A stretch of DNA of 64,000 bases from an uncultured Gammaproteobacteria bacterium (GTDB lineage: Bacteria > Patescibacteriota > Microgenomatia > Levybacterales > UBA12049): assembly GCA_964490105.1 (NCBI GenBank), contig CAZAZU010000002.1, forward strand, positions 12,751 through 76,750. The letters run 5' to 3'. The notes beneath the pieces are model-generated. The model worked only from the letters and a program-made list of their open reading frames with translations. It ran no database searches and was not told the DNA's origin. Positions 22,895-58,281 of this stretch are shown piece after piece. Each line of letters opens with the position of its first letter. Positions within the stretch are counted from its first letter, which is position 1. The position numbers and the translations under genes were made by a program.

Positions 22895-22949
22895 TCTTCA
22901 CTTACTATGGGTTTGACATCCCCCTTAAAATGTTGTAATATGACCGCGT
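22895..22949 (+). promoter_or_regulatory. sigma70-like promoter (TTGACA-17-TAATAT) for the 22950 operon
   Basis: ttgacatcccccttaaaatgttgtaatatga immediately upstream of the ATG at 22950. Confidence 0.4.
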
Positions 22950-33926: not shown

Positions 33927-34412
33927 ATGGGATACTTAAGAGAACTCGGAATAAGTACTGGCTGGGTTAAGCCCAAACCCGGAGAATTCTTACCCGAGCA
34001 TCAGGAGCTTGGACTAGCCTATCAGCTGCTTGATTTAACATTTAGAGACTCTCGAAGAGAGCTTGCAGCAAGACCAGATGAAGAGGAATTAGTAAGAGAC
34101 TTATTAGGAAAACGTATAAAAGAAAGGGCTTTAAGGGTGACTTCTGAAGGACTTAAAGCTTCATATTATTCACCAGATCAGTCAGGACCACACCATTTAT
34201 TGGTTGGCGAATCATTATTATTCAGCTTAAAATCACAAAAACTTTTAAGGGCTCCAGCTCCAAGAACCTCATTTAATGCTGAAGAGTTAGAAGAAGCATC
34301 TTCAAAAGAATGGTTCGAGCATGGAATGAATGTCGCAAAAACTACCCTAGCACATTTAGTTGGAGTTCGAGGCTTACCTATATATCTATCTAGAATCGAA
34401 CTGCCTAGATAA
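33927..34412 (+). CDS. hypothetical protein (GC-rich)
   Basis: 161-aa ORF, no motif. Composition differs from its neighbours. Its 3' end overlaps the convergent PAP2 gene. Confidence 0.3.
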   Translation: MGYLRELGISTGWVKPKPGEFLPEHQELGLAYQLLDLTFRDSRRELAARPDEEELVRDLLGKRIKERALRVTSEGLKASYYSPDQSGPHHLLVGESLLFSLKSQKLLRAPAPRTSFNAEELEEASSKEWFEHGMNVAKTTLAHLVGVRGLPIYLSRIELPR

Positions 34413-35084
34413 TTTTCCATTTACCAAGGACAAGTAAATCAGGGATAAAGATACACCTAAGAGAATTCCTCCAATTACATCTGTTGTCCAATGCTCACCC
34501 AGATAAACACGGCTTAAAAACATTATAAAATCAAATCCTAATATAAAGATTATGGGGACCATTTTTAAATTTTTACTGAGTTTTGGACTTAGCCAAATTG
34601 CAAAAAGTAAAATTAGAGACACAAATGCTGTTCTTGCCGAGTGACCTGAAGGATAGGCGAAAAATTCATGCGGAATATAAGAAGACGGAAAATGTACTGC
34701 TAAATTTGTTTTTAATAACATTATTGGAGGCCCATGATGCTCAATTATCATTTTTCCAGCTAGCTCAATTACCCCAGTTAATACGTAAAACATTAGAGCA
34801 AATATCTTGCCCGGAAGTTTAAATATAAATAGCGCTAACAGTAAAATCAAACTCGCAACTTCAGCGCTCCCCAGCAAGCTAAATGAAGAAAATAACCCCA
34901 CTGCTCTATCCGGGATGAAGTTTTGAATTCTGACAGTTGTGTCGAAATCAAATCTCGTAAACAGATCTTCTGCCACCAGAAAACTAAGAAAAATAAATAA
35001 AGTAAATGTAACAAGACCAATGATACCGCTGTATTTTAAAATTCCCATGAAGACATTTATTGTAGCATCTGCCTGCAGATGCAA
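34386..35084 (-). CDS. PAP2 family membrane phosphatase
   Basis: PAP2 motifs PSGHSARTAF and SRVYLGEHWTTDVIGG. Polytopic. Alternative start at MGILKY (35048). Confidence 0.65.
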   Translation of the reverse strand: MHLQADATINVFMGILKYSGIIGLVTFTLFIFLSFLVAEDLFTRFDFDTTVRIQNFIPDRAVGLFSSFSLLGSAEVASLILLLALFIFKLPGKIFALMFYVLTGVIELAGKMIIEHHGPPIMLLKTNLAVHFPSSYIPHEFFAYPSGHSARTAFVSLILLFAIWLSPKLSKNLKMVPIIFILGFDFIMFLSRVYLGEHWTTDVIGGILLGVSLSLIYLSLVNGKLSRQFDSR

Positions 35085-35106
35085 GCAAAGCGTTGCAAGC
35101 GGGAAT

Positions 35107-35466
35107 TTACTTTCCCTGTTTGTGATGCTCGTGCATGTAGACTACGACACCTGTCGCAATCGCAGCACCGGTTACCCCTACTACTGCCGCTGTTTTCTTT
35201 ATTAGATCTGGATGCTCCGCTATGAACATCCTTACTGACCTAGGACCTGCAAACTGAAGTCCAACCGATCTTTCGCTAGTAGTATGAAGCTCGATAGCAC
35301 TTCTTAATCTTCCAAATCTTCCAGCCTGAACCCTTAAATCATCTGGTGCATTTACTCTATCTGCCCTCAAACCAATCTCAACAGGTGTACCATGCGCAGG
35401 AATTTCTCCGATTCCCTCCGGATGATCATCATATATATTTGGCACAATAAGGTCTTGCTCAGTCAT
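35107..35466 (-). CDS. hypothetical tail-anchored protein (GC-rich)
   Basis: 119 aa. Single C-terminal TM (AAVVGVTGAAIATGVVVYM). No motif. Confidence 0.3.
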   Translation of the reverse strand: MTEQDLIVPNIYDDHPEGIGEIPAHGTPVEIGLRADRVNAPDDLRVQAGRFGRLRSAIELHTTSERSVGLQFAGPRSVRMFIAEHPDLIKKTAAVVGVTGAAIATGVVVYMHEHHKQGK

Positions 35467-35492
35467 TTGAAGAGGATTATAGCAGAAACTAT

Positions 35493-36398
35493 TTAAAACT
35501 TGAGGTTTTTTAAGAAGTCTTTAAATTCTTCACTTATGTCAGGATGATTTAACGCGAGCTCTACTATAGTCTTCATGTACTCAAGCTTATTTCCAGTATC
35601 ATAATATTTACCATTTTCAATTTCTACCGCATAAATCGGCACACCTTGCTCCTGTAAAAGATTGATTGCATCCACCAGCCAAATCTCTCCGCCTTTTCCT
35701 GGTGCCAAACTTTTTAAGGCTGGAAAAATTTCAGGAGGAAGAATATATGCGCCGTGAGTAGCTATATTTGAAGGCGCCTGATCTGGATCTGGTTTTTCTA
35801 CAATTGCTTTAATTTTTGAGACTTTTCCCTCTACTGGTTCTAGATCTGCGATTCCATATCTTTTTAAATCTTCTTTTTTCTCAATTCTGACCCCTGAAAT
35901 AACCACTCCACCGTATTTTTCATAAACCTCAATCATCTGCTGTAGCCTTGGTGGCTCAGCATAAATAAACTCATCCCCCCAAAGAACCGCAAATGGCTCA
36001 TCTTCTATAGCAGGTTCAGCCGAAAGAACTGGTGTTCCGTTTCCATAGGGTCCTTTTTGGCGAACATAAATAAAATTCGCCATCTCCCCTATTTTTTTAA
36101 CCATTTCCATGAATTCTGTTTTTCCTCCAGCTTCAAGATTCTGCATCAATTCCGCATTGGGATAATCAAAATGATCTTCAATAGCTCTTTTAAGAGACCC
36201 TGTTACTATTACAATATCTCTAATTCCTGATGCCACAGCTTCCTCAACTACATATTGAATAACGGGCTTATCTACAATAGGAAGCATCTCTTTAGGCATC
36301 GCCTTGGTTTGCGGGAGAAATCTGGTACCAAAGCCTGCTGCGGGTATAACTGCTTTTCTGATTTTCTTCATAAAGTTCTTTATATCATAAGGCATCAT
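35493..36398 (-). CDS. galU: UTP--glucose-1-phosphate uridylyltransferase
   Basis: KAVIPAAGFGTRFLPQTKAMPKEMLPIVDKPVIQY (G.GTR.LP.TK signature). Length ~300 aa. Confidence 0.85.
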   Translation of the reverse strand: MMPYDIKNFMKKIRKAVIPAAGFGTRFLPQTKAMPKEMLPIVDKPVIQYVVEEAVASGIRDIVIVTGSLKRAIEDHFDYPNAELMQNLEAGGKTEFMEMVKKIGEMANFIYVRQKGPYGNGTPVLSAEPAIEDEPFAVLWGDEFIYAEPPRLQQMIEVYEKYGGVVISGVRIEKKEDLKRYGIADLEPVEGKVSKIKAIVEKPDPDQAPSNIATHGAYILPPEIFPALKSLAPGKGGEIWLVDAINLLQEQGVPIYAVEIENGKYYDTGNKLEYMKTIVELALNHPDISEEFKDFLKNLKF

Positions 36399-36494: not shown

Positions 36495-36683
36495 ATGGCA
36501 ACTTCGCCGATTACTTTTACAAAACAAGCAGTAGATGAACTTAAAAAGGTCACCTGGCCTACTCGAGATGAGGTCATAAGACTAACTGTGGCAGTGATAG
36601 TAATTAGCGCAGCTGTAGGTCTTTTCCTTGGTGGAATCGACTTTGTTTTAACAAAAACATTAGAAATATTATTAAATAGATAA
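36495..36683 (+). CDS. secE: preprotein translocase subunit SecE (minimal single-TM form)
   Basis: 62 aa. ELKKVTWPTRDEVIRLTVAVIVISAAVGLFLGGIDFVL matches the SecE consensus (KV.WP.R.E....T..V). Immediately precedes nusG. Confidence 0.75.
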   Translation: MATSPITFTKQAVDELKKVTWPTRDEVIRLTVAVIVISAAVGLFLGGIDFVLTKTLEILLNR

Positions 36684-36685
36684 AT

Positions 36686-37618
36686 ATGGACGACAATAAA
36701 AAAACACAAGATCAGATTGACTTGTCCACCGAAGCAACAGAAACTGCGAAGGTAGAAGAAAAAGAAGAAGCTTTAGAAGAAGCCGAAATCAACGCTGATG
36801 AAAAAGAAGGTTTAACAGAAGAGCAAATTAAAGAAGATACTACTATGGTAGAGGCTCCAGATTTATCAGATGGAGAACCTGAAGTGAAAGATGCACCAGA
36901 AAGTCTCACAGAGGAACAGATCGAAGAAGATACTACAATGGCTGCAACCCCAAATATTTCAAGTGATGAAATAAAAGAAACCCCAGAAAATCTAACAGCT
37001 GAGCAAATCAAAGAGGACTCGGAAATGGCTCCAGTTGAAGACCCTGATGAAGAACTCGAAAAAGCAAAGCAAATTTTAAATGCCGGAGACAATGTAAATG
37101 CCAGATGGTATATCGTTCACACTTATTCTGGACACGAAAATAAAGTTGCAAAATCTATCAAGCAAAGAGTGCAAAGCTTAGGATTTGAAACTAGAATTTT
37201 TGACATTATTGTTCCCACCAGAAACACTATTAAAGTAAGTCAGGGTAAAAAAGAAACAGTTAAAGAAAAAATATTCCCAGGATACGTTCTCGTAAAAATG
37301 ATTCTTGATGATGAATCATGGCTTTTGATTAGAACCACACAGGGAGTAACTGCATTTATCGGAGCTGGTAACAAACCAACTCCAATCTCAGAAAAAGAAG
37401 TTGAAGCTATTCAGAAATTTATGGATGCAGATGAACCGCTCTATAAAACAGCGTTCACAATTGGTGAAGCTGTAAAGATAGTTGATGGACCATTCTCAGA
37501 TTTCTTAGGAACAATTGATGATATTGATGAAGCTAAAGGAAAACTTAAAGTGCTTGTAAGTATTTTCGGACGCGAAACACCAGTAGAACTAGACTTTTTA
37601 CAAGTAAATAAGTTATAA
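36686..37618 (+). CDS. nusG: transcription termination/antitermination factor NusG with ~125-aa acidic repeat-containing N-terminal extension
   Basis: NGN domain (RWYIVHTYSGHENKV...FPGYVLVKM) and KOW (GEAVKIVDGPFSDFLGTIDDID). N-terminus has three imperfect repeats of LTEEQIKEDTTM(V/A). Confidence 0.85.
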   Translation: MDDNKKTQDQIDLSTEATETAKVEEKEEALEEAEINADEKEGLTEEQIKEDTTMVEAPDLSDGEPEVKDAPESLTEEQIEEDTTMAATPNISSDEIKETPENLTAEQIKEDSEMAPVEDPDEELEKAKQILNAGDNVNARWYIVHTYSGHENKVAKSIKQRVQSLGFETRIFDIIVPTRNTIKVSQGKKETVKEKIFPGYVLVKMILDDESWLLIRTTQGVTAFIGAGNKPTPISEKEVEAIQKFMDADEPLYKTAFTIGEAVKIVDGPFSDFLGTIDDIDEAKGKLKVLVSIFGRETPVELDFLQVNKL

Positions 37619-37740: not shown

Positions 37741-38160
37741 ATGGCAAAAAAAATTAAAACAATTATAAAGATTAACATTCCAGCTGGAGCAGCAACACCA
37801 GCACCACCTGTTGGAACTGCATTAGGTCCGCACGGACTTCCTATCATGGAATTCGTACAGGCTTTTAACGAAAGAACCGCAGATCAAAAAGGAAATATTA
37901 TTCCTGCAGTTATTACAGTGTATGAAGACAGAACTTTTTCTTTCATAACTAAAAAACCACCTATGTCAGAACTTATTAAAAAGGCTATTGGCAGAGGCGG
38001 CGCAAATAATCCAGGAAAAGAAGTGGCAGCAACACTAACAAAATCTCAAGCTGAAGAAATTGCCAATACAAAAATGGAAGATCTTAACACAACTGATCTT
38101 CCTCAAGCAGTAAGTATCGTAAAAGGAACAGCAAGAAGTATGGGGGTAAAAGTAGAATAA
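37741..38160 (+). CDS. rplK: 50S ribosomal protein L11
   Basis: IKINIPAGAATPAPPVGTALGPHGLPIMEFVQAFN is near-universal L11 sequence. Confidence 0.9.
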   Translation: MAKKIKTIIKINIPAGAATPAPPVGTALGPHGLPIMEFVQAFNERTADQKGNIIPAVITVYEDRTFSFITKKPPMSELIKKAIGRGGANNPGKEVAATLTKSQAEEIANTKMEDLNTTDLPQAVSIVKGTARSMGVKVE

Positions 38161-38978
38161 TGGGAAAAATTAGAGTAAAAACATTAGGAGACGAAGAACA
38201 GGAATTAAAAGATAAAGCTGAAATGGAAGCAAAAAGAGCCGAAAAGAAAGCCCGCGAAGAAGCTGAAGAAACACAAACAGAAGAACCTGATACTCAATCT
38301 GAAAAGGTAGAAACTACAGAAGCTCCATCAGAAGAAACTGAAGCATCGGAAAAACCAAAAGCAAAAAAGAAAAAAGAAAAGTTTATTAAGAAAAAAGTTC
38401 GGTCAGTTGCTTATAAAGCTAAGATCATGGAAATTGAAAAAAACAAAGTCTATTCCCTAACAGATGGAATTGAACTTTTAAGAAAAGTTAAAATCGCAAA
38501 ATTTGATGAAACAGTTGAACTTCACATAAATACTACAGAAGCAGGAATCAATGGAACAGTAAAACTTCCACACGGAACAGGAAAAGAAATTAAAGTTGCG
38601 ATCGCAGACGATGCAGTGCTCGCAGAAGTAGAAAAGGGGAAAATTAATTTCGATATATTAATTGCAGAGCCTAGTATGATGCCAAAACTAGCTAGAGTTG
38701 CTAGAGTGCTCGGTCCAAAGGGACTCATGCCAAATCCAAAAAATGGAACTATTTCACAGAATCCAGAAGAAGCAGCTAAAAAGTTCCAAGGAGGGCAAAT
38801 TGGATTTAAAACAGAAAGCAAACTTCCAATTATTCATTTAAGTGTTGGAAAAACTTCTTTTGAAGACAAACAGCTTGAAGAAAATATAAAAACAATTATC
38901 ACGGCTATTAAGAGAGATAAAATTAGAAATATTACTCTTAAATCCACCATGTCCCCAGGTATAAAAATCCAGGCTTAA
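38160..38978 (+). CDS. rplA: 50S ribosomal protein L1 with ~85-aa K/E-rich N-terminal extension
   Basis: Core from YSLTDGIELLRKV...VELHINT...VLGPKGLMPNPKNGT matches L1. Overlaps the rplK stop. Confidence 0.85.
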   Translation: MGKIRVKTLGDEEQELKDKAEMEAKRAEKKAREEAEETQTEEPDTQSEKVETTEAPSEETEASEKPKAKKKKEKFIKKKVRSVAYKAKIMEIEKNKVYSLTDGIELLRKVKIAKFDETVELHINTTEAGINGTVKLPHGTGKEIKVAIADDAVLAEVEKGKINFDILIAEPSMMPKLARVARVLGPKGLMPNPKNGTISQNPEEAAKKFQGGQIGFKTESKLPIIHLSVGKTSFEDKQLEENIKTIITAIKRDKIRNITLKSTMSPGIKIQA

Positions 38979-39019: not shown

Positions 39020-39064
39020 TCAACGCATTGACAAAGCTAATCATATTTCATACTGTTATATAAT
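39020..39064 (+). promoter_or_regulatory. putative promoter (TTGACA ... TATAAT) for the inserted secreted-protein cluster
   Basis: ttgacaaagctaatcatatttcatactgttatataat directly upstream of the ATG at 39065. Confidence 0.3.
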
Positions 39065-40348
39065 ATGGAGCGAATACTTCAGCATAAGCTGATTTTAGTA
39101 ACAATTGCTATTCAGCTTTTCGCTCTACCCTTGGTTCTTTTTGCGGTAAAAGAAAGACAGGAAACTAGAACTCAGGCTTCAGCTTCAACATCATTATCAT
39201 TCTCCCCCACCTCTGCTTCCGATACACCTCATAATGTAAACGTAGGCCAGGAGTTTCCCGTAGATGTAATTGTTATTCCCAGCAATAATTTAATTACACT
39301 TGCAAAATTAGAAATATTATATGATTCTTCGAAATTCTCATTATCAGATACGAATCCAATCGTAATTAATACGACTGCATTTCCTCAAACAATAGAGGGG
39401 CCAGTTTATACTCATGGAAAAATTCAGATAGTAGTATCTACCGGATTTGACTATACGAAAGTAATTCAGGCAGAAACAAAAATTTTAACAATTAATTTAA
39501 AGGCTAATACACCAGTAAGCCAAACCCAATTATCTTTTGGATCAAATAGCGGTCTTTATTCTTTAGGCAGTGGTGATTCAAGTAGTATAAGTGTATTATC
39601 AGCAACAACTCCAATCTATGTTAAAGTAAACGAAGCTCCAACTCCTACATTCACACCTGTTCCTACCAACACTCCAACTCCATCCCCAAAACCCACAATC
39701 ACGCCTACACCAACGATTACTCCAACTCCATCCCCAAAACCGACTTCTACACCAATCCCTACTAATGCTCCGACACCAATTCCAACAATTGGAACTACAA
39801 CTTTATTTTTTGAAGGGCTTAAATTACATGGTTTAGGAAAAGGTGGAGACAGTCCCAATCCAAACAGTAATGGTACTCTAAACCCATTAAGAACCACTAG
39901 GGAATTAACCGTAGAACTATATGATAATTCAAATAACCTTATTAATTCTTCTAAAGGTTATATTAAATACACTGTTCCAACTGAAGGAGTATTTAATGGA
40001 GCCGTAGATTTACCAAACACCATACAGGATGGAGATTATTTCATAACAATCAGAACCCCATACTATTTAGGAAAACGACTCCAAGGATATACAACAGTTG
40101 CAAAAGGCCAATCTGTCACGATTAACAATCAATCCGCAGTTTTGGTGGCAGGAGATATTAATCTCGATAATAAGCTTTCAGTTTTGGATTATGACATAAT
40201 AATGGAGTGCTACAGTGATCTTCAGGCAGCTAAACCTACATGCACAGCTGAGAAAAAATTAGCAGCTGATATTTCTGATGATGGAAAAGTTAACCAGGAT
40301 GACTATAATTTATTTATAAGAGAGCTTTCGATTCAAAAAGGAGAATAA
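39065..40348 (+). CDS. secreted protein with cohesin-like N-terminal domain, PT-rich linker and C-terminal dockerin-like repeat pair
   Basis: Signal/anchor. N-domain [31 protein letters not shown] is cohesin-like. Linker [51 protein letters not shown]-terminal [21 protein letters not shown] and [22 protein letters not shown] match dockerin type-I Ca-binding repeats. Confidence 0.5.
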
Positions 40349-40349
40349 G

Positions 40350-41501
40350 ATGAGAAAACTATTTATAATTTTAGTCTTATCTCTAACAATTGCCTTAACT
40401 AAAAGCGATGAGTCCAATGCTCAAGGATCTTGTATGACTACCCCACCCACAAACACAGGAACCTCTACCATATCTACTACGACTACGGCCGGTACATACA
40501 GAGTTTGGGCAAGAATTAAAGCTGCAGATACCAGCAATAATTCTTTCTACTTAAGAATTGATAGTCAGTGTGCTATTTTAGTCGGAGATAATAATCAAAT
40601 TTCTGCGGCTTCTTGGACATGGGTAGACTATCAAAGTGGAATAACTACAAATAAAATAAATACCACCCTAACCGCTGGAGACCACGTGGTCACAATTATT
40701 GGAAATGAACCAGGAGTAAGCGTAGATAAAATATTAATGACAAAAAATCTAACCTGTGTACCAACTGGCTTCGGAGAAAATTGCCCCATAGAATTACCAA
40801 ATACGCCTACCAATACTCCAACTGCTTTACCTACAAATAACCCTACCCCAAAACCATCTAATACCCCAACTCCAACACTAAAACCTAGCTCAACCCCTAC
40901 CCCCACAAATATTCCAACATCTACTCCAACTCCCATTGTAACTGCTGCTCCTCTAGAAACTGTACTTAAGTTCAATATTGTTAAACTTCACGGAATTGGA
41001 ATAGGTGGAGATAATACTAATCCAACAATCACTGGAAATACTAACCCAGCTACTCAAACAAGAGTATTAAGCGTAGAACTTTATGATAACTCAGGTGTTT
41101 TAGCAAAAACAGTACAAGGAAATATAGTTTATGGAGCTGGAAATGGATATTTCTCAGGTTCTATAGTTCTTGATTCAAGTGTAGTTGAGGGAAATTATTT
41201 AATTAAGATCAAGACTGACAAATACCTAAGAAGACAACTGAGTAGGATAATCGAAATTAAAAAAGGCAATATAATAGATATGCCAGAGGCGACACTAGTT
41301 GTTGGAGATTCAAATGGCGATGGAACATTAAGTATTCTTGACTACAGCATAATCCTTGATTGCTATAGTGACTTCCTGGATCCGAAGAATTGTGCTGACC
41401 CAGCTAAAAAATCAAAAGCTGACCTTTCAGATGATGGAAAAGTAAATCATGATGACCATACTCTTTTCCTTCGAGAACTGTCAGTTGTGACGGGTGATTA
41501 A
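40350..41501 (+). CDS. secreted protein with CBM-like beta-sandwich N-domain, PT-rich linker and C-terminal dockerin-like repeat pair
   Basis: Signal peptide. Linker NTPTNTPTALPTNNPTPKPSNTPTPTLKPSSTPTPTNIPTSTPTP. C-terminal VGDSNGDGTLSILDYSIILDCY and ADLSDDGKVNHDDHTLFLRELS. Same architecture as the upstream paralog. Confidence 0.5.
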   Translation: MRKLFIILVLSLTIALTKSDESNAQGSCMTTPPTNTGTSTISTTTTAGTYRVWARIKAADTSNNSFYLRIDSQCAILVGDNNQISAASWTWVDYQSGITTNKINTTLTAGDHVVTIIGNEPGVSVDKILMTKNLTCVPTGFGENCPIELPNTPTNTPTALPTNNPTPKPSNTPTPTLKPSSTPTPTNIPTSTPTPIVTAAPLETVLKFNIVKLHGIGIGGDNTNPTITGNTNPATQTRVLSVELYDNSGVLAKTVQGNIVYGAGNGYFSGSIVLDSSVVEGNYLIKIKTDKYLRRQLSRIIEIKKGNIIDMPEATLVVGDSNGDGTLSILDYSIILDCYSDFLDPKNCADPAKKSKADLSDDGKVNHDDHTLFLRELSVVTGD

Positions 41502-42858
41502 AATGAATCCAAATGTTAAAAACCGTTTAATAAAAAAGTATGCAACTCTTGGAATCCTACTTCTAACAATCGCGCTTCCTATAACTCTTTATCAGGTTCG
41601 TCAAAATCAGGATAATCGCTCTAGCGCTGCGGCTGCGGATAAACTTGAGGCTGAAGGAGGACTTTTAAGTGGAAATGCGACCAAGCAAACAGATACATTA
41701 GCTTCAGGTGGAAGTTATGTAAAACTACAAATAAGCAACGCAACTCCCACTCCCGATCCCAGTAAGCCAATTGTTGGTGTAATTCGTTGGGATGCTTGGA
41801 CACCAAATCTTCATCCTACAACAACTACTCAAAATAAATGGATAACAGCTGATTTAGGAAAATGGGGCTATCGTTTACCGTTTTTTGCAAAAAATCTTCC
41901 CAACAATACAAAAGATTCAGAAGTGATAAATGAAGATAGCCAGGAAATTATAGATAAAGAAATTCTATACACATCACAAGCTGGCATAAATTATTGGACT
42001 TTTTTCTGGTTTAATTTCTGGTGGCAGGATAGTAATACAACATGGCGATACAATTACGGCCTAAATAATTATCTAAATAGTCCGTATAAAAATAAGATGA
42101 ATTTTGCTTTAATGCTCGGCTGTTGTGGCCTGCTAGATCATTATCCGACTGACTGGGAACCAAAAGTAGTACCTAAAATTGTGAACCTTGTTAAGCAACC
42201 TACATATCAAAAAGTTTTAAATGGCAGACCTATCATATATGTTTTTGGAGCTTCTCAATTAAGTGGATGGTTCAATTGTGGATACTATGATTATAGATAT
42301 GGTACTTGCGCTGACAAAAGCTATACTAAATCAAAGGTTGCATTAGACTATCTTAGAGCAGAGATTCAGAAAGCAGGACTGCCAAATCCGTATCTAGTAG
42401 CTATGGTTTGGGATCCGGGAAATAAAAATTATACAAGTTCCACTGGGTATGGCTTTGATGCAATAACTTCTTATTCAGGCCATGATGCTAGCGTTAATAC
42501 TTTAACCCAAAAATCATACACAACTCTTTCAGCTGATAATTTGGCTTATCGCGAAAAAGCAAAGGCTTCGGGCAATAAAATTATTCCACCTGTTAACACG
42601 GGATGGGATCGCCGTCCAGATCCTGGTTATAATGGGGTCTGGTACGAAGCTGGAACTCCAATTCAAGTAGGAGCTAATCTTAAAGCTGCTATCGACTGGA
42701 ATAAAGCTAATCCAACGCTTACGGAAACAAATAATGTGTTAATTTATGCATGGAATGAATTTGTTGAGGGCGGTTGGCTTGGCCCTACACTCGAAGATAA
42801 AGGAGCTAGACTAAATGCAATTTCCAATATATTAGGTGGCACACAAATTAAGCCATGA
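41494..42858 (+). CDS. membrane-anchored/secreted hypothetical protein (possible glycoside-hydrolase-like domain) carrying conserved post-TM motif
   Basis: TM LGILLLTIALPITLY, then VRQNQDNRSSAAAADKLEAEGGLLSGNA...ASGGSYV. A Trp/Tyr-rich domain (GVIRWDAWTP...). 8-nt overlap with the upstream gene. Confidence 0.45.
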   Translation: MIKMNPNVKNRLIKKYATLGILLLTIALPITLYQVRQNQDNRSSAAAADKLEAEGGLLSGNATKQTDTLASGGSYVKLQISNATPTPDPSKPIVGVIRWDAWTPNLHPTTTTQNKWITADLGKWGYRLPFFAKNLPNNTKDSEVINEDSQEIIDKEILYTSQAGINYWTFFWFNFWWQDSNTTWRYNYGLNNYLNSPYKNKMNFALMLGCCGLLDHYPTDWEPKVVPKIVNLVKQPTYQKVLNGRPIIYVFGASQLSGWFNCGYYDYRYGTCADKSYTKSKVALDYLRAEIQKAGLPNPYLVAMVWDPGNKNYTSSTGYGFDAITSYSGHDASVNTLTQKSYTTLSADNLAYREKAKASGNKIIPPVNTGWDRRPDPGYNGVWYEAGTPIQVGANLKAAIDWNKANPTLTETNNVLIYAWNEFVEGGWLGPTLEDKGARLNAISNILGGTQIKP

Positions 42859-44468
42859 AAAAAAATAGATTTGGTATTTTTATATTACTAATAGCTCTAA
42901 TTGCTCTACCGTTAATTCTGTCTGAAGTCAAACAGAATCAAGATAATCGCTCTTCTGCTGCAGCTGCAGACAAATTAGAGGCTGAAAGCGGAATATTAGG
43001 AGGTAATGCACAAAGCATCTCTGATCAAACAGCTTCTGGCGGAAATTATATAGTCTTTGCAAATCATTCTCCAACTCCTACAGCCCCAGCTACTCCCACG
43101 CCATCAAACATTGATGCTGGTCTAACAGTTCCCACATCATCATTCCAATTTCCGACTACTCCCGCATCAGGTGGACAAATTAGAAATGTTACTTCTTATG
43201 GAGCGACTTGTAATAATTCAACTAACGATGACAGCGTAGGGATTAAAGCCGCTATAACAGCATCAATCGCAGGAGATGATGTAATTTTTCCCTCAAACTG
43301 CACGCTTCATTTAAAAACATGGCCAATTGATCTTAAAACAGGGGTGAGCTTAAAAGGCCAAGATAAAACTACCTCTATTCTTCACGGAATGTTCAGTACC
43401 GCTCCAAATCCTCTTTTTTATGCCAGAACTCAGGCTTCGACTTCTACAAATCAGCCTGTTTCAAATCTTTCGATTACAAATTTCAGCTATACAACTCTAT
43501 CTGGAACTCCTCCGGATATACTTATTAAGCTCGGACATGGAACATGGAATACAAATAATTCTGAATGGAAAACGGTCTCTAAGATTAAGATTGAAAATCT
43601 AACTATTGAGAAATTCAGAAAATACGCAATTGATATTCAAAATTCAGAGTTTATTTATGTAGCAAATAATGTGATCAAAAATGCAACTTCGCTCGGCGGC
43701 GGAGGTGAAGGTTATGGAATAAAAATAGATATGGATAAGTCTAAGAATAATTGGATTAAAGGAAATATAGTAGGTCCAGTAATCAGACACGCCTATTTAG
43801 TCCAATACGATGCAAATCATAATCTTTTTGAAGGAAACACGGCTACCGGAACCACGCAAGATGCCTTTGATATGCATGGAGAAAATGAATTTAGTAACGA
43901 ATTTAGGAATAATATCGTGACAAATTGCGTTACTACCGATCCCTTCACAGGCACCGCTACATACGGTTCAGGATTTGGAATTGGCGAAGTTCCTACATCT
44001 ACAAGCGCACCCCCAGGAGATGCAGGTCATCACGATTTTACAGGAGATAATAATTGGATTCATGATAATTCAGTTTCAGGCTGTTATTCCGGAGTAAGAG
44101 TTAATAACACAAATAACACCTATATTGAAAACAATATTATTACAAATAACAGAAGCGGCGGAATCCTTATTGGAGATCTTGATACTTACATATTTCCTGA
44201 GTTAACTTCAAACCCACCGGCCTATGGCACCAATAATATAATAGCTAAAAATAATACTGTAAAAAATAATCCAGTAGGCTTCAGAATTAAAAATGCTAAA
44301 AATCCTCAAATACTAAATAATATAGCGACAAATAATGCCGGTGCTGGGCTTACTTTAACAGTACAGACAACTGGATACATAATATCGGGCAATGACTTCA
44401 GATTTAACACATCTGCAATAAATCTAGGAGGTAATACTTCCGGAACCTTCACAAATAATCTGCAATAA
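42855..44468 (+). CDS. membrane-anchored/secreted right-handed parallel beta-helix (pectate-lyase-fold) protein carrying the same post-TM motif
   Basis: TM FGIFILLIALIALPLIL, then VKQNQDNRSSAAAADKLEAESGILGGNA...ASGGNYI. PbH1-type repeats (NNIITNNRSGGILIG, NNTVKNNPVGFRIKN, NNIATNNAGAGLTL). Confidence 0.55.
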   Translation: MKKNRFGIFILLIALIALPLILSEVKQNQDNRSSAAAADKLEAESGILGGNAQSISDQTASGGNYIVFANHSPTPTAPATPTPSNIDAGLTVPTSSFQFPTTPASGGQIRNVTSYGATCNNSTNDDSVGIKAAITASIAGDDVIFPSNCTLHLKTWPIDLKTGVSLKGQDKTTSILHGMFSTAPNPLFYARTQASTSTNQPVSNLSITNFSYTTLSGTPPDILIKLGHGTWNTNNSEWKTVSKIKIENLTIEKFRKYAIDIQNSEFIYVANNVIKNATSLGGGGEGYGIKIDMDKSKNNWIKGNIVGPVIRHAYLVQYDANHNLFEGNTATGTTQDAFDMHGENEFSNEFRNNIVTNCVTTDPFTGTATYGSGFGIGEVPTSTSAPPGDAGHHDFTGDNNWIHDNSVSGCYSGVRVNNTNNTYIENNIITNNRSGGILIGDLDTYIFPELTSNPPAYGTNNIIAKNNTVKNNPVGFRIKNAKNPQILNNIATNNAGAGLTLTVQTTGYIISGNDFRFNTSAINLGGNTSGTFTNNLQ

Positions 44469-44520: not shown

Positions 44521-44549
44521 TTGACAGATTGAGGCTCAGCTGATATTAT
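44521..44549 (+). promoter_or_regulatory. sigma70-like promoter TTGACA-17-TATTAT for rplJ-rplL
   Basis: ttgacagattgaggctcagctgatattat. The ~95-nt structured leader that follows is consistent with an L10 autoregulatory leader. Confidence 0.5.
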
Positions 44550-44645
44550 GTCACTTACCTAAGACAGCGGGCAATCAATAAGTCCTGCCGAGGATGTAAT
44601 AAGCTCAAATTGAGCGCATCAACACCTTAGGAGGGTGTTTTTTTT

Positions 44646-45383
44646 ATGGGAATAGTAAAACAAGCAGTAAAACATACTGGACGTGGGCGAAAAGAAGAAA
44701 TCGTAGCTGAATTAGTCGAGAAAATCGATAACTCTAAAGCTTTGGTTTTTACTGACTATCAAGGTCTTACTCATGTTCAGCTCGAAAGTCTTAAAAAAGA
44801 ACTTAAAAAAAATGACGCTACAATCATAATCGCTAAGAATAGTCTTCTTAAAATCTCTCTTGGTAAATCAAAAAACTACGCGGACTTTAAAGATAATGAG
44901 AGTCTAAATCTTCCAACAGCTACTCTTTTTATGCAGGGAGATTATGTAGAACCTCTTAAACAGCTCCAAAAAGCACTTAAAGATTTTGGGCTTCCAAAGA
45001 TAAAGTTTGGCATTTTAGAAGGCCAAGCTCTTGATGAAGCTCAGGTTATAAAAATAGCTTCACTACCAAATAGAGAAACACTTCTTACTCAGTTAGTTGG
45101 TGTTCTTAACTCCCCTATTCAGGGATTGGTTGTAACTCTTAATGGAACTATTCAAAAATTTGTAATGACACTTGGAGCAATTGCAGCAAATAAACCAGCG
45201 ACTCCAGCGGATGCCCCAGTCGCAGAAACAACAAGTGAAACACCAGCAGAATCTGCACCAACAGAGGAAACACCTAGTGAAATGGAAAATACAGAGCCTG
45301 CTCCTTCTGAGGCAAAAGAAGAACAAGCGACCGAAGATTCTACTTCCAATGAAAAACCTGAAGAACAAACTCAAAATCCTTAA
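44646..45383 (+). CDS. rplJ: 50S ribosomal protein L10 with ~70-aa acidic low-complexity C-terminal extension
   Basis: The N-terminal ~175 aa are L10-like (KEEIVAELVEKIDNSKALVFTDYQGLTHVQLESLKKEL...). Tail ATPADAPVAETTSETPAESAPTEETPSEMENTEPAPSEAKEE. Confidence 0.85.
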   Translation: MGIVKQAVKHTGRGRKEEIVAELVEKIDNSKALVFTDYQGLTHVQLESLKKELKKNDATIIIAKNSLLKISLGKSKNYADFKDNESLNLPTATLFMQGDYVEPLKQLQKALKDFGLPKIKFGILEGQALDEAQVIKIASLPNRETLLTQLVGVLNSPIQGLVVTLNGTIQKFVMTLGAIAANKPATPADAPVAETTSETPAESAPTEETPSEMENTEPAPSEAKEEQATEDSTSNEKPEEQTQNP

Positions 45384-45483: not shown

Positions 45484-45870
45484 ATGGCAAAAATAAGTAA
45501 AGATGATTTATTAGCAGCAGTTGAAGAAATGTCAGTTCTCGAACTCTCAGAATTAGTAAAAGCTCTAGAAGAAAAATTCGGAGTTAGTGCACAAGCTATG
45601 GTAGCTCAAGCTCCAGCAGCAGGCGCAGCTCCAGCAGCAGAAGCAGGAGAAGAACAGACCGTATTTAATGTTGTAATCGCATCAGGTGGCGCAAATAAAA
45701 TTTCTGTTATCAAAGCAGTTCGTGAGTTAGTCCCTACCCTTGGACTTAAAGAAGCTAAGGATTTAGTTGACGGAGCTCCAAAAGAAGTAATGACAGCAGT
45801 TAATAAGAAAACCGCTGATGAAGCAAAAGAGAAATTAACAGCAGCAGGTGCTACTGTTGAACTCAAGTAG
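45484..45870 (+). CDS. rplL: 50S ribosomal protein L7/L12
   Basis: [36 protein letters not shown], an Ala-rich hinge, and the C-terminal domain ...[14 protein letters not shown]...[14 protein letters not shown]. Confidence 0.9.
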
Positions 45871-45936
45871 GATTTAGGTTTATGATTTATGGCGATTTAG
45901 TCATAGATCGATATTCATAAATCCTAAATCTAAAAA

Positions 45937-45963
45937 CCGAAGCTTAAATGCTTCGGTTTTTTT
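45937..45963 (+). terminator. rho-independent terminator after rplL
   Basis: ccgaagc-ttaaat-gcttcgg followed by ttttttt. Confidence 0.7.
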
Positions 45964-46047
45964 ATGGAAAATTTATCCAAAGTTATCCCCTTTTGCGTTT
46001 TGGTTGATGAATCAATGAAAACTCCCCTTTTTAAGGCTTTTGGGGTA

Positions 46048-46108
46048 TTGACAAGATATGTACCAGTTTGTTATTTTGTACATAACAAGATGATATATTG
46101 ATTATCAT
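46048..46108 (+). promoter_or_regulatory. promoter (TTGACA-17-TTATTT) overlapped by two inverted repeats (candidate operator) upstream of the HTH gene
   Basis: IR1 ttgttat-tttgtac-ataacaa (46068-46088). IR2 atgata-tattgat-tatcat (46090-46108). Both lie between the -10 element and the start codon at 46127. Confidence 0.45.
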
Positions 46109-46126
46109 CAATACACTTACAAGGCT

Positions 46127-46336
46127 ATGGCTGATCAAAGCATATCAATATCTAACCTACCCGATCTTTTAACTGTTAGAGAAGCAGCCCAAGTTCTTAG
46201 AGTCTCCCCTTTAACTCTAAAAAGGTGGGGCAAAAGAGGAAAACTTCCAGCAATTAGAATTAACTCCCGAGGTGATCGCAGATACAGAAAAGAAGCAATT
46301 CTTTACCTCTTGGGAATTCAAGTTAAAGAAGACTAA
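46127..46336 (+). CDS. small helix-turn-helix DNA-binding protein (excisionase/MerR-type HTH)
   Basis: LTVREAAQVLRVSPLTLKRWGKRGKLPAIRI. 69 aa. Confidence 0.6.
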   Translation: MADQSISISNLPDLLTVREAAQVLRVSPLTLKRWGKRGKLPAIRINSRGDRRYRKEAILYLLGIQVKED

Positions 46337-47172
46337 ACGCTCTTCCAGTAGTCAGCCAGGTGCTGACTTTTTATTTTTTCAATATCAGGATTATCAAAAT
46401 GCTCTTTTATGAACTCAAAAGTCTCAAATGGAGCCTGAGTATTCACAGAAACCCCGGTCCCCACTTCAAATCCTCCTAAGATTTTTAGCCTTGGAATAAA
46501 TCTTAAATACCAGTTCTTCCCCGGATAAATATAAAAATTAAATGGAAAATCATGACCATGTCTTAAATCAAATATTTGAAGCAAGCGCCCTACAGCAAAA
46601 GCTAGTTCGTTTATCTCGAAATCTGTTGCATCACTAAAACTAGCATCGCTTTTATGAGGCGCTACCCAAACTTCATCAGGCCATTCTGAAGTGCCGGGAC
46701 AAAAAATATAAAGGTGCTTAAGATCTTTTTTTTCCTCCTGGGCTATATGCAGCTCTGGAATTTTTAACTCCACTTCCCGCGGAATAACTGTAAGCTGTGT
46801 GTGAGGATGCGGAAGGCTCTCTCCTGCCCTTTTTCCTTGATTATGGAATATATATACCTGCCCTTTATTTTTATGCTCCATAAATCTCCTTCTATAAACA
46901 TTAAATATATCCTCAGACATATGAACTGGCAGTTCATCAAAATTCTTATGATGATCATCAGAATGAATTATAATTTCGTGGATCGGAGCAAACGGATATT
47001 TATTTGGAACTACCCTAACTTGATTGAGAGTAAAAATTGGCTCTTCATGTCCCGGCTCAAAAGGACACGGAGGAAGAACTCCTTGGCTTTGATCAGGTCT
47101 CTTAGCACGTTTTGGAGCAGAAATAACCCACCCGCCAGTGGCAGGATTTTTAATAAACCTAAAATCGGGCAT
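46333..47172 (-). CDS. galactose-1-phosphate uridylyltransferase-like (GalT/HIT superfamily) protein
   Basis: Active-site LPHPHTQL (HPH.Q) and N-terminal Zn-site-like CPFEPGHE. 279 aa. Confidence 0.65.
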   Translation of the reverse strand: MPDFRFIKNPATGGWVISAPKRAKRPDQSQGVLPPCPFEPGHEEPIFTLNQVRVVPNKYPFAPIHEIIIHSDDHHKNFDELPVHMSEDIFNVYRRRFMEHKNKGQVYIFHNQGKRAGESLPHPHTQLTVIPREVELKIPELHIAQEEKKDLKHLYIFCPGTSEWPDEVWVAPHKSDASFSDATDFEINELAFAVGRLLQIFDLRHGHDFPFNFYIYPGKNWYLRFIPRLKILGGFEVGTGVSVNTQAPFETFEFIKEHFDNPDIEKIKSQHLADYWKSV

Positions 47173-47176
47173 ATTT

Positions 47177-48331
47177 TCAGTCTATAATTTTTTTATAGAC
47201 TTTTTCGTGTTCTTCTACCATTCTATCAATTGTAAAATTTTCTTCAACATGAATTCTACACGCCTCCCTCATCTTCCCATATTCGTCTTCATCCATAGAA
47301 AAAATTTTATTTATAGCTTCAGCCAAACCATCCGCGCCGGTTTTTTTAATTATCCATTTGCTCGACTTTCCCCTATCGTGCTCTACGATAAAACCTGTTA
47401 CTCCATCTTTTATAACTTCAGATACGCTTCCGTTATTAAAGGCTATAACTGGCGTCCCTGAGCTCATCGCTTCAATCATTACCATTCCAAAAGGCTCATT
47501 CCATAAAATTGGAAATAAAAGCGCTCTTGCTTCTCTTAAAAACTCATCTCTTTCTGCTTCTCCAAAAGACTTATCTTCTATTATTCCTTTTTTAAGCTCT
47601 GGCAAAATATTTTTTTGGTAATAAGGTAGCGCTCTATATGCATCATCTCCGACCATTCTTAGAGTTTTACCGGTTTTTTGAGCAGCATCAATCGCCTGAG
47701 TTACGCCTTTTTCTTTTATATACCTTCCAAGAAATGCTAAATAATCTCCTCCCGATCTTCCAAACTTAAATTTATTTATATCCACTCCGTGCCTAATTAC
47801 GCCTACGCTTTTTACAAGTCCTTTATAAGTTTCTAGCTGATTTTCGCTAATAAAAATATAATTATCTTTCTTAAAAGACTGAAGCCTTCTATATTCTAAG
47901 TGCTCCCGAAGAGGCCTTGGGTCATGAAGAGTATAAACAGTTGGAATTGGAACTAGCTTATTAACATAGTGAGCCATAAAATCGTGATAGGAATGCATTA
48001 TCTCCAGCTTTTTTTTCTGAGCGTGTTCATAAGCTTTTACTGATAAATCAATCTCATATTCTGTCCTGGTAGCGACGTGAGCATTTTTTAGCTTTGTTAT
48101 TCGATCAAGTCCTCTAAATTTAGGACTAATAAAATCTTTATCTATGTAATGAGTATCACCTGGAATAAGTCGCGCTTTTGTTTTAGTATTTTCTGAAGCA
48201 TAAACATAAACCTCGTGCCCTCTTTGCACCAAACCGTCAGCAAGATGAATAAATAATTCTTTAGGGGCAAAAATCTTATCCTTATATTTGCTGCCCATAT
48301 AAACTGATGGAAGAAGAAGTCCTATTTTCAC
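47177..48331 (-). CDS. GT4 family glycosyltransferase
   Basis: EPFGMVMIEAMSSGTPVIAFNNGSVSEVIKDGVTGFIV (E.7E region). Confidence 0.8.
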   Translation of the reverse strand: MKIGLLLPSVYMGSKYKDKIFAPKELFIHLADGLVQRGHEVYVYASENTKTKARLIPGDTHYIDKDFISPKFRGLDRITKLKNAHVATRTEYEIDLSVKAYEHAQKKKLEIMHSYHDFMAHYVNKLVPIPTVYTLHDPRPLREHLEYRRLQSFKKDNYIFISENQLETYKGLVKSVGVIRHGVDINKFKFGRSGGDYLAFLGRYIKEKGVTQAIDAAQKTGKTLRMVGDDAYRALPYYQKNILPELKKGIIEDKSFGEAERDEFLREARALLFPILWNEPFGMVMIEAMSSGTPVIAFNNGSVSEVIKDGVTGFIVEHDRGKSSKWIIKKTGADGLAEAINKIFSMDEDEYGKMREACRIHVEENFTIDRMVEEHEKVYKKIID

Positions 48332-56968: not shown

Positions 56969-56987
56969 TTTAAGGGCGCAAATTATG

Positions 56988-57061
56988 CGTCCCCGAGAGG
57001 AGTTGAACCTCCAATCTTTCCCTTAGGACGGGACTGCTCTATCCAATTGAGCTACGGGAAC
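56988..57061 (-). tRNA. tRNA-Arg (anticodon CCT)
   Basis: Reverse complement folds by hand: acceptor gttcccg/cggggac (one G-U), D-arm gctc-aattggata-gagc, anticodon loop gtcctaa, T-arm ggagg-ttcaact-cctct. Confidence 0.65.
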
Positions 57062-57147
57062 ATAAATATATTTTAACACAACCTAGGTTCACCGAGCTAA
57101 ATTGATATATTCAGTATATCTTGACACCTTAGTTAATAATCGATACG

Positions 57148-58239: not shown

Positions 58240-58281
58240 ATAACTATTGCAATTTCTTCTTTTCGAACTTAAAATAGTAAA

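Follow-up and report, generated by a model that had tools for sequence, protein, structure and literature searches.

A Variable Island of Cohesin- and Dockerin-Bearing Proteins between rplA and rplJ in a Levybacteria-like Genome

Gene Order at the rplA-rplJ Junction

The window considered here is the whole 64-kb stretch (64,000 nucleotides) of contig CAZAZU010000002.1, and the subject is a group of four genes, referred to below as the island, that lies between the ribosomal protein genes rplA and rplJ. As judged from the named homologues and the related loci, the organism is a Levybacteria-like member of the Microgenomates within the candidate phyla radiation (CPR). The stop codon of rplA and the start codon of rplJ are 5,667 bp apart, and the interval is filled by four co-directional open reading frames (ORF1 to ORF4; Table 1) which abut or overlap one another. 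The first-pass annotation, a reading of the bare sequence by a model, had described four co-directional genes for secreted or anchored proteins at 39065-44468, two of them ending in dockerin-type calcium-binding repeats, the first also having a cohesin-like N-domain, and the other two carrying a glycoside-hydrolase-like domain and a pectate-lyase-type beta-helix. This inventory was borne out: the four genes are in place, the quoted dockerin strings are found in ORF1 and ORF2, each protein has an N-terminal export or anchor segment, and the domain assignments agree with the profile and fold searches described below. The start of ORF3 may be placed at GTG 41494 (454 amino acids, aa) or, as in the source's gene call, at ATG 41503 (451 aa). 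A scan with NCBIfam gave only sub-threshold or low-complexity matches.

Table 1. Features of the rplA-rplJ junction and its surroundings (window coordinates; roles of ORF1 to ORF4 are predicted).
Feature	Positions	Strand	Residues or length	Remarks
secE	36495-36683			
nusG	36686-37618			
rplK	37741-38160	+		Pfam Ribosomal_L11_N/L11
rplA	38160-38978	+		Pfam Ribosomal_L1; rplKA is the upstream L11/L1 operon and the island starts past its end
Putative island promoter	39028-39064	+		-35 TTGACA 39028-39033, 17-nt spacer, -10-like TACTGT 39051-39056
ORF1	39065-40348	+	427 aa	Cohesin carrier/adaptor
ORF1 N-terminal hydrophobic helix	39068-39157		residues 2-31	
ORF1 cohesin	39182-39634		residues 40-190	
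ORF1 Pro/Thr linker	39635-39790			Disordered in the AlphaFold2 model
ORF1 Ig-like (immunoglobulin-like) X module	39791-40123		residues 243-353	
ORF1 dockerin	40136-40339		residues 358-425	
ORF2	40350-41501	+	383 aa	Dockerin-tagged non-catalytic cargo protein
ORF2 CBM-like (carbohydrate-binding-module-like) beta-sandwich	40488-40745		about residues 47-132	Behind a Sec-type signal peptide, before a Pro/Thr linker
ORF2 X module	40956-41276		residues 203-309	
ORF2 dockerin	41289-41489		residues 314-380	
ORF3	41494-42858	+	454 aa from GTG 41494	GH99-like (glycoside hydrolase family 99-like)
ORF3 shared leader			residues 14-48	Followed by a short linker
ORF3 GH99-like (beta/alpha)8 domain	41770-42834		about residues 93-447	
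ORF4	42855-44468	+	537 aa	Right-handed beta-helix
ORF4 shared leader			residues 3-38	Followed by a right-handed parallel beta-helix
rplJL control region	44521-44653	+		Promoter 44521-44549, L10 leader RNA 44540-44653
rplJ	44646-45383	+		Pfam Ribosomal_L10; rplJL is the downstream L10/L12 operon
rplL	45484-45870	+		Pfam Ribosomal_L12_N, Ribosomal_L12
Intrinsic terminator after rplL	45932-45966	+		12-bp GC-containing hairpin and U-run

Cohesin, X Module and Dockerin in ORF1 and ORF2

Pfam Dockerin_1 (PF00404) matches residues 362-421 of ORF1 with 26.6 bits and residues 319-372 of ORF2 with 24.1 bits, in both cases above the gathering score of 22.9. The calcium (Ca) loops of ORF1, D364-x-N-x-D...D375 and D402-x-S-x-D-G...D413, follow the canonical D/N/S/D pattern. 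Residues D364, D375, D402, D405 and D413 are invariant in 29 homologues, and so is C382/C393, a cysteine pair located between the two dockerin repeats. Loop positions 1, 3, 5 and 12 (DxNxD...D, DxSxD...D) are invariant in the same 29 homologues and in 70 members of the wider family. The AlphaFold2 model of ORF1, computed from the 29-sequence alignment, has a predicted local distance difference test score (pLDDT) of 79 with confident individual domains: a helix (residues 2-31), a beta-sandwich (42-189, pLDDT ~90), a second beta-sandwich (245-354), and a three-helix module (360-424) whose helices span residues 373-382, 395-401, and 411-424 (pLDDT ~88). Sequence and model together predict a pair of EF-hand-like Ca loops of 12 residues, with a helix behind each, as in type I dockerins, and the model predicts the jelly-roll beta-sandwich fold of a cohesin.

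A Foldseek search of the PDB with the whole ORF1 model returned the CohI9-X-DocII fragment of Clostridium thermocellum CipA as the best match (4fl4_C, 3kcp_A; E ~1e-13), many isolated cohesins ranking after it with template modelling (TM) scores of 0.7-0.78. The ORF1 cohesin superposes on the solved cohesins 6kgc_A, 6kge_A, and 1g1k_A with a probability of 1.0, TM scores of 0.75-0.78 and a root-mean-square deviation of 2.6-3.0, the sequence identity of ORF1 to solved modules being 10-20%. The PDB dockerins 4fl4_A and 2y3n_B align with the dockerins of this locus, ORF2 doing so with 2y3n_B at E 6.5e-4. A homologue of the ORF1 cohesin in the related locus L011 (14166-14759) scores 26.9 bits against Pfam Cohesin (PF00963; threshold 24.1), and several other homologues hold a precomputed match to this family.

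ORF2 resembles ORF1 in its linker-X-dockerin half (46% identity, E 1e-60), where local hidden Markov models (HMMs) recover the X module at E 2e-36 and the dockerin at E 2e-28. Its N-terminal domain gives a weak match to GH115_C that covers only profile positions 67-160 of 172, i.e., the C-terminal part. The local HMMs count one cohesin (in ORF1) and two X-dockerins in the window. The X module contains a nearly invariant motif, LHG(L/I)GxGGD(x)xNP (ORF1 residues 254-263, 39824-39853, with an equivalent in ORF2), of which H255, G256, G258, G261, and D262 are kept across the 70-member sample of the wider family.

ORF3, ORF4 and a Common N-Terminal Leader

ORF3 matches PF14307 (Glyco_tran_WbsX) with 37.4 bits against a threshold of 25.1, and its homologues bear the name 'glycoside hydrolase family 99-like'. 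Its AlphaFold2 model (pLDDT 83.5, predicted TM score 0.78) finds by Foldseek the GH99 endo-alpha-mannosidase 4ad0_B first (E 7.5e-10, TM 0.62), followed by GH71. Residues W420, E422, E425, G426, and G427 are invariant across homologues and include an N-E-x-x-E-G motif spaced like the E333/E336 pair mutated in GH99 entries. The profile match, the predicted (beta/alpha)8 fold and the conserved acidic pair are those expected of a GH99-like enzyme; at a TM score of ~0.6 and an identity of 11-13% the protein is GH99-like by profile and fold and at most a candidate member of the CAZy family GH99. Searches of the PDB by sequence, with single sequences and with profiles, gave no relatives for either ORF3 or ORF4. 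The nearest homologue of the catalytic domain (41761-42855) besides itself is 44% identical, and the names among its homologues are Desulfuromonadales, Planctomycetota, Anaerolineae, and Bacteroidota. The proteins which occupy the ORF3 position in relatives resemble ORF3 over the first ~90 residues only. Since position-equivalents match just the leader part and the homologues of the domain come from other phyla, catalytic domains appear to be swapped behind a conserved leader, and ORF3 probably represents a foreign catalytic domain taken up behind a leader that was already resident.

ORF4 matches Pfam Beta_helix (PF13229) in three stretches (E 2.6e-19, 69.8 bits against 25.9) and NosD (E 4.4e-10, 39.8 bits). 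Its homologues with 70-84% identity are Levybacteria beta-helix proteins, some of them with Pectate_lyase_3, and ORF4 may be regarded as a putative glycan depolymerase.

ORF1, ORF3, and ORF4 have a leader in common, a hydrophobic stretch followed by V[KR]QxQ[DE]xR[ST]xAxA; over the 43 aa past the hydrophobic segment, ORF3 and ORF4 are 70% identical. The leader is found at 39065-39200, 41494-41640, and 42855-42970, as well as in 29 gap proteins of L001-L015, L027, and L035. It contains ALP within the hydrophobic stretch, the V[KR]QxQ[DE]xR[ST]xAxA motif begins ~12 residues past the hydrophobic core, and its bearers include cohesin carriers, X-dockerin enzymes, and beta-helix proteins. The consensus of the 70 wider X-dockerin proteins retains a trace of it (Q..R..A.G). 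The leader may be a lineage-specific export or processing signal. Residues ~45-75 of ORF3 and ORF4 (41620-41720 and 42950-43050) form a short stub, 'AADKLEAExGxLxGNA...ASGGxY', which resembles the first strands of a CBM-like sandwich, and longer homologues of ORF4 (P0243-P0245, 755-763 aa) have ~220 additional residues at this position. The stubs, the longer homologues and the partial GH115_C match of ORF2 suggest that domains are deleted or shuffled within the island.

The Junction in Relatives and the L10 Leader

In Escherichia coli and Bacillus subtilis, rplKA and rplJL each have a promoter and an autoregulation of their own; the rplJL leader is bound by L10(L12)4, and in E. coli there is partial read-through across the junction. 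The locus under study is alike in having a predicted separate promoter and a probable autoregulatory leader (RF00557) directly upstream of rplJ. A promoter scan gives a sigma70-like promoter, TTGACA-17-TATTAT with TG, with 11/12 matches. Rfam L10_leader (RF00557) is matched over its full length at 44540-44653 with 42.8 bits against a gathering score of 44 (E 2.3e-4); it is seen at the E-value level, the scan of the window at the gathering level reporting tRNAs only. The folded leader pairs the Shine-Dalgarno sequence GGAGG in a hairpin followed by a U-run (-25.7 kcal/mol). The leader also lies directly 5' of rplJ where the gap of a relative measures 588 bp, 1.3 kb, 2.9 kb, 5.0 kb, or 8.8 kb. 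Its score exceeds the gathering level in L003 (50.4 bits, 8.8-kb gap) and L021 (47.9 bits, 588-bp gap) and falls below it in L001, L016, and L018 (43.1, 39.9, and 36.4 bits, respectively). Because relatives have the leader whatever fills the gap, it is ancestral and was not acquired by rplJ-rplL after an insertion, contrary to what had first been proposed.

The junction was surveyed by scanning species-representative genomes with L1 alone and measuring the rplA-rplJ distance within a 10-kb flank, which yielded ~30 Patescibacteria loci. Every one of them has at least one ORF between the two genes. The gaps measure 588, 622, 897, 1094, 1256, 1621, 1721, 2772, 2909, 3043, 3633, 4982, 6491, and 8761 bp, and in six loci rplJ was not reached within the flank. 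By comparison, the gap is 224 and 232 bp in the non-CPR loci L038 and L039. In distant loci the gaps contain unrelated genes of either orientation, which encode GT4 glycosyltransferases, a GDSL lipase, a malonyl-CoA-ACP-type acyltransferase, and an LPG-synthase-like protein. As the junction is occupied in every sampled CPR locus, and in the distant ones by unrelated genes on both strands, it is a permissive operon boundary across the group. Accordingly, the break is not unique to this genome, and the genes stand at a natural boundary between rplKA and rplJL and not inside a ribosomal operon, contrary to the first-pass annotation. Its filling with cohesin and X-dockerin genes was met in one Levybacteria subclade only among the sampled Patescibacteria loci. 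Compared with the non-CPR junction of ~0.2 kb, the Patescibacteria have 0.6 to >10 kb of unrelated genes there, and a strong terminator, not rpoBC, follows rplL here. Behind the terminator lies a small HTH_17/MerR-like gene (46127-46336; region 45871-46340) instead of rpoB-rpoC, an arrangement shared by L001 and L004.

In the close clade, the commonest resident of the gap is a PlsC-type acyltransferase (PF01553), which has no copy in the window; it may be an older occupant of the junction. It was located at L002:5125-5946, L006:7946-8866, L009:10818-11678, and L003:11453-12256, being the sole gap gene in L009.

The Island in the Close Clade

The close clade was defined by an L1 at least 65% identical (L001, L002, L003, L005, L006, L008, L011, L012, and L015), plus L042. 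Its gaps hold co-directional exported proteins assembled from common parts, and in ten loci cohesin and X-dockerin genes are located together. The proteins include leader-cohesin-X-dockerin forms, leader-cohesin-only forms of 193-197 aa, and X-dockerin-tagged proteins with GH26, polysaccharide lyase family 8 (PL8), GH18, and CBM/fn3 domains, accompanied by beta-helix proteins that bear the leader, by a sulfatase with CBM96, and frequently by the PlsC-type acyltransferase. Each relative has at most two single-cohesin proteins per island. X and dockerin always occur together. The content of the island differs even among close relatives, and in L042 it exceeds 14 kb.

In L043, a homologue of ORF1 (29% identity) lies far from ribosomal genes, in a cluster that also encodes a further dockerin protein, a cohesin protein of 196 aa, and a GH5-like enzyme. 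This cluster outside the ribosomal context indicates that cohesin and dockerin genes travel together and that the ribosomal address is incidental and clade-specific. Their co-location in two genomic contexts argues for a functional cohesin-dockerin unit, and the initial view that these genes belong together as a module is sustained by their being kept as a unit in relatives. Many of the contig titles of the metagenome-assembled genomes (MAGs) L005-L012 and others read 'uncultured Gammaproteobacteria bacterium', and also Rhodospirillaceae and Methanosarcinales; in gene content and in the similarity of L1/L11 they are Levybacteria/Patescibacteria-like, and the labels appear unreliable.

Promoters and Terminators

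The ATG of ORF1 lies 8 nt past TACTGT and has no Shine-Dalgarno sequence. Upstream of the ORF1 homologues in seven loci, TTGAC(A) is invariant, TACTGT (TAnnnT) is conserved behind a 17-nt spacer and the ATG follows after 6-8 nt without a Shine-Dalgarno sequence; this is so irrespective of the gene in front, be it rplA or one for an acyltransferase, a cohesin protein, or a lyase. Chance would give 0.21 occurrences of the pattern TTGAC-N18-TAnnnT-N6-8-ATG in the window, which has four. Three of these sit exactly at the starts of long ORFs, and 12 further sites start island genes in relatives. ORF2-like genes in relatives stand close behind the upstream gene and have an internal AGGAG. ORF1 to ORF4 probably form a four-gene operon transcribed from its own conserved promoter, with a leaderless or near-leaderless ORF1 mRNA and ORF2 to ORF4 translationally coupled behind it. 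It had been supposed that a position inside the ribosomal operon ties expression to growth rate; such coupling is hypothetical and not required, since ORF1 and many island genes of relatives stand behind their own conserved leaderless-type promoter.

No terminator-like hairpin was detected after rplA (hairpin scan; fold z +0.47), and none between ORF4 and rplJ (hairpin scan and folding). The sole strong terminator from rplK to rplL is the one after rplL, with a z-score of -4.43 and 0/200 shuffles equally stable; the repeat search also picked it up as an inverted repeat.

Elsewhere in the window, TTGACA-N17-TAATAT-N7-ATG at 22913-22952 coincides exactly with the start of a 244-aa ORF and fits leaderless transcription elsewhere in the genome. 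A 360-aa ORF that lies in a patch rich in G+C (GC 0.50 at 57-58 kb against ~0.37 elsewhere) likewise begins at a leaderless-type promoter (57121-57159). This patch (56987-58240) directly adjoins tRNA-Arg(CCT) at 56987-57061 and is possibly foreign DNA integrated at the tRNA gene.

The X-Dockerin Family

In a search of 1.84 billion representative proteins, the 185-aa X-dockerin dyad of ORF1 matched 1,879 clusters, of which 1,165 reach E<=1e-10 and 301 reach E<=1e-30. The dyad is nearly always C-terminal, in proteins of 200-1,450 aa. A Pfam scan of 70 such proteins found Dockerin_1 in 45/70 (E<=1e-4). The cargo in this sample includes CBM_4_9, VWA, SdrD_B, ricin lectin, PL8, alginate lyase, GH16, GH18, beta-helix, sulfatase, phytase, phosphoesterase, subtilase, and esterase domains. 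Such a mixture suggests that X-dockerin is a general docking tag of exoproteins and not part of a cellulose-degrading machine.

Comparison with Known Systems

With the CohI9-X-DocII fragment of CipA (PDB 3kcp, 4fl4) and with single-cohesin adaptors such as Ruminococcus flavefaciens ScaC, ORF1 shares the presence of a cohesin, an Ig-like X module, and a dockerin in one chain; in the clade each dockerin is immediately preceded by a beta-sandwich, the putative X module, and the ORF1 model aligns to CipA as a whole. The clostridial and ruminococcal scaffoldins are further alike in their canonical Ca loops and in the dockerin-tagged GH and PL genes beside cohesin carriers, which here are found in relatives. 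Unlike those elements, the present locus has a single cohesin, no CBM3, no cellulases, and a hydrophobic N-terminus instead of an S-layer homology (SLH) or sortase anchor; it also differs from them in the long Pro/Thr spacer, the invariant Cys pair between the dockerin repeats, and the fusion of X to every dockerin of the family.

The cohesins of Clostridium perfringens GH84C/GH33 (PDB 2w1n, 2vo8, 2jh2) and the Archaeoglobus fulgidus protein that has cohesin and dockerin in one polypeptide (PDB 2xdh) are among the Foldseek matches of ORF1, and both exemplify cohesin-dockerin pairing outside cellulose degradation, where it serves the assembly of glycan-active or surface proteins. Binding has been demonstrated experimentally in the C. 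perfringens and A. fulgidus systems, whereas the pairing at this locus is predicted from sequence and models. The locus differs from both in the phylum, the reduced genome, the leader-cohesin(-X-dockerin) architecture, the very large tag family, and the cargo other than carbohydrate-active enzymes.

The first-pass annotation held that such a system had not been described for a reduced genome. Cohesin and dockerin proteins are in fact already known in Microgenomates: PMC9123182 reports them as expressed in Candidatus Shapirobacterales, alongside GH and PL genes, and mentions 'cellulosomes' in Candidatus Roizmanbacterium, citing Geesink et al. 2020. A dockerin-domain protein is also reported to be essential in a Saccharibacterium (PMC10633639). 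The Shapirobacterales and Roizmanbacterium reports concern the same CPR supergroup and both module types, apparently as domain annotations made in passing. The portions of the Microgenomates reports at hand contain no description of the leader-cohesin-X-dockerin architecture, the X-dockerin family, the rplA-rplJ location, or the promoters, and Geesink et al. 2020 may overlap. The literature on rumen and biogas MAGs offered nothing informative on CPR cohesins. Apparently new, then, are the leader-cohesin(-X-dockerin) receptors, the Cys-containing X-dockerin as a very large tag family, the variable rplA-rplJ island in one Levybacteria clade, and the leaderless-type promoters.

A Proposed Display System and Its Alternatives

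The segment as a whole is best explained as a lineage-specific, fast-evolving exoprotein island at the natural rplKA/rplJL operon boundary, and to this reading, taken together with the mechanism given next, we assign a probability of roughly 0.58. In the mechanism that we propose, ORF1 would be retained on the cell surface through its hydrophobic N-terminus, displaying one cohesin followed by the long Pro/Thr spacer and the X-dockerin dyad. ORF2 would be secreted, with its CBM-like sandwich on a spacer and an X-dockerin dyad of the ORF1 type. The Ca-dependent dockerins of ORF2 and/or of other ORF1 molecules would plug into the ORF1 cohesin, thereby tethering a glycan-binding module to the surface and, in relatives, the GH26, PL8, and GH18 enzymes. 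ORF3 and ORF4, co-expressed and exported via the shared leader, would attack the same extracellular glycan undocked. Overall, the locus would encode a non-cellulosomal cohesin/X-dockerin display for binding and degrading glycans, which may be environmental, part of a host envelope, or extracellular polymeric substances.

Several observations weigh against this proposal. Only one cohesin is encoded in the 64-kb window, and its own match to Pfam Cohesin (residues 57-177, 23.6 bits) falls short of the threshold of 24.1. Both catalytic proteins of the window, ORF3 and ORF4, are devoid of a dockerin according to Pfam and the local HMMs. The leader is also borne by X-dockerin enzymes of relatives and holds AxA-like sites, so that it may act as a signal peptide and be cleaved off, in which case the cohesin would lose its anchor. 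The -10 element of ORF1, TACTGT, is weak, which is why the generic promoter scan missed the promoter, later found via cross-locus alignment. Lastly, as terminators are missing, transcription may read through from rplKA into the island and on from there into rplJL.

The alternative that survives best, and which we nevertheless consider unlikely, is that X-dockerin attaches proteins to the envelope through a partner other than a cohesin (a wall glycopolymer or an S-layer component), or is a Ca-stabilised structural module, the cohesin-like domain being an unrelated beta-sandwich adhesin. The 1,879 clusters make X-dockerin proteins very numerous, and in the loci they outnumber the cohesin carriers by 21 to 10. 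The invariant Cys pair and the obligatory X module, which are not known from clostridial dockerins, are in line with this alternative, and, as Peer et al. 2009 reportedly describe, many modules of the cohesin or dockerin type that occur outside cellulosomes, in all three domains of life, have no demonstrated partner. Against it, cohesin genes persistently adjoin X-dockerin genes in two genomic contexts, the small proteins consisting of leader and cohesin make most sense as receptors, and the fold match spans the entire Coh-X-Doc arrangement of CipA.

It is less probable still that the island serves the cell's own envelope, with ORF3 (WbsX/GH99-like) and ORF4 trimming or remodelling the surface polysaccharide under the organisation of ORF1 and ORF2. 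The ribosomal cluster lies among envelope-glycan genes that are kept in relatives, PF14307 is named after a gene of an O-antigen cluster, and the PlsC-type acyltransferase recurs in the gap. However, the islands of relatives hold a GH26 mannanase-like protein, a PL8 lyase, GH18, the sulfatase with CBM96, and lectin-type domains, as is usual where foreign glycans are foraged, and the quick turnover of content among close relatives is unlike that of housekeeping envelope genes.

The idea with which the study of this DNA began, a miniature cellulosome inserted in a ribosomal operon and expressed in step with growth rate, here taken as a new insertion that serves plant-cell-wall degradation, is now improbable. 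Its cohesin and dockerin modules are genuine, their neighbours are glycan-active, and some read-through from the strong rplK promoter is plausible as no terminator separates rplA from ORF1. A cellulosome, however, would be recognised by a multi-cohesin scaffoldin, and one cohesin in ORF1 and none elsewhere in the window were found; by dockerin-bearing cellulases or hemicellulases with a cellulose-binding CBM, and there is no GH5/9/48 or CBM3 in the window, whose two enzymes have no dockerin; and by an SLH or sortase anchor, and Pfam and NCBIfam reveal neither SLH nor LPXTG, the helix of ORF1 (residues 2-31) being the only candidate anchor. In addition, the site lies between two operons, has an ancestral L10 leader and is filled in all sampled Patescibacteria, the island has its own conserved promoter, and the X-dockerin cargo is mixed, with phytase, protease, and VWA among it.

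Finally, a chimeric assembly or the recent integration of a mobile element or prophage fragment, which might account for the variable island content of close relatives and for an ORF3 whose nearest non-self homologue comes from other phyla, is hardly credible, because the same rplA-island-rplJ layout in many independent assemblies (NCBI, JGI, ENA, Logan) rules against an artefact, the GC of the island (0.36-0.39) equals that of its flanks, no integrase or transposase was seen among the genes of the segment, and a search for direct or inverted repeats flanking the island gave only those of the Pro/Thr linkers and the paralogous modules and hence no evidence of mobility.

Further Observations in the Window

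The flanks of the secE-rplL cluster (34386-36398 and 46333-48331; also L001, L003, and L042) contain PAP2 and NTP_transferase genes upstream and a GalT-like gene, three GT4s, WecG, and DUF218 downstream. Three proteins of the cluster have low-complexity extensions: an acidic repeat of ~130 aa at the N-terminus of NusG (36686-37100), a Lys/Glu-rich one of ~75 aa at the N-terminus of L1 (rplA, 38160-38400), and an acidic Pro/Thr/Glu one of ~70 aa at the C-terminus of L10 (rplJ, 45170-45383).

Implications for Microgenomates

In these genomes, the interruption of the rplKAJL string belongs to an operon boundary and is shared across the lineage; it is not evidence that the inserted genes are co-regulated with the ribosome. 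The TTGAC-N18-TAnnnT-N6-8-ATG arrangement suggests leaderless transcription of island genes, a prediction that can be checked directly against groundwater metatranscriptomes already available.

With their tiny genomes, CPR bacteria presumably rely on hosts or the surrounding community, and little is known about how they retain enzymes and adhesins at the surface. On a broader and decidedly tentative view, Levybacteria and related Microgenomates may organise much of their exoproteome by a docking system in which membrane-leader cohesin receptors (leader-cohesin and leader-cohesin-X-dockerin) capture a lineage-specific, Cys-stapled X-dockerin tag carried by >1,000 protein clusters, including glycanases, lyases, lectins, VWA adhesins, phosphatases, and proteases. 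Genes at the heart of the system would reside in a recombination-prone rplA-rplJ island with leaderless-mRNA promoters, and the system would help ultra-small cells to attach to and feed on the glycans of hosts or particles. If the pairing of cohesin and X-dockerin works as proposed, it would provide a simple, testable model of surface display for Microgenomates, along with a sequence tag by which to recognise their exoproteome in metagenomes.

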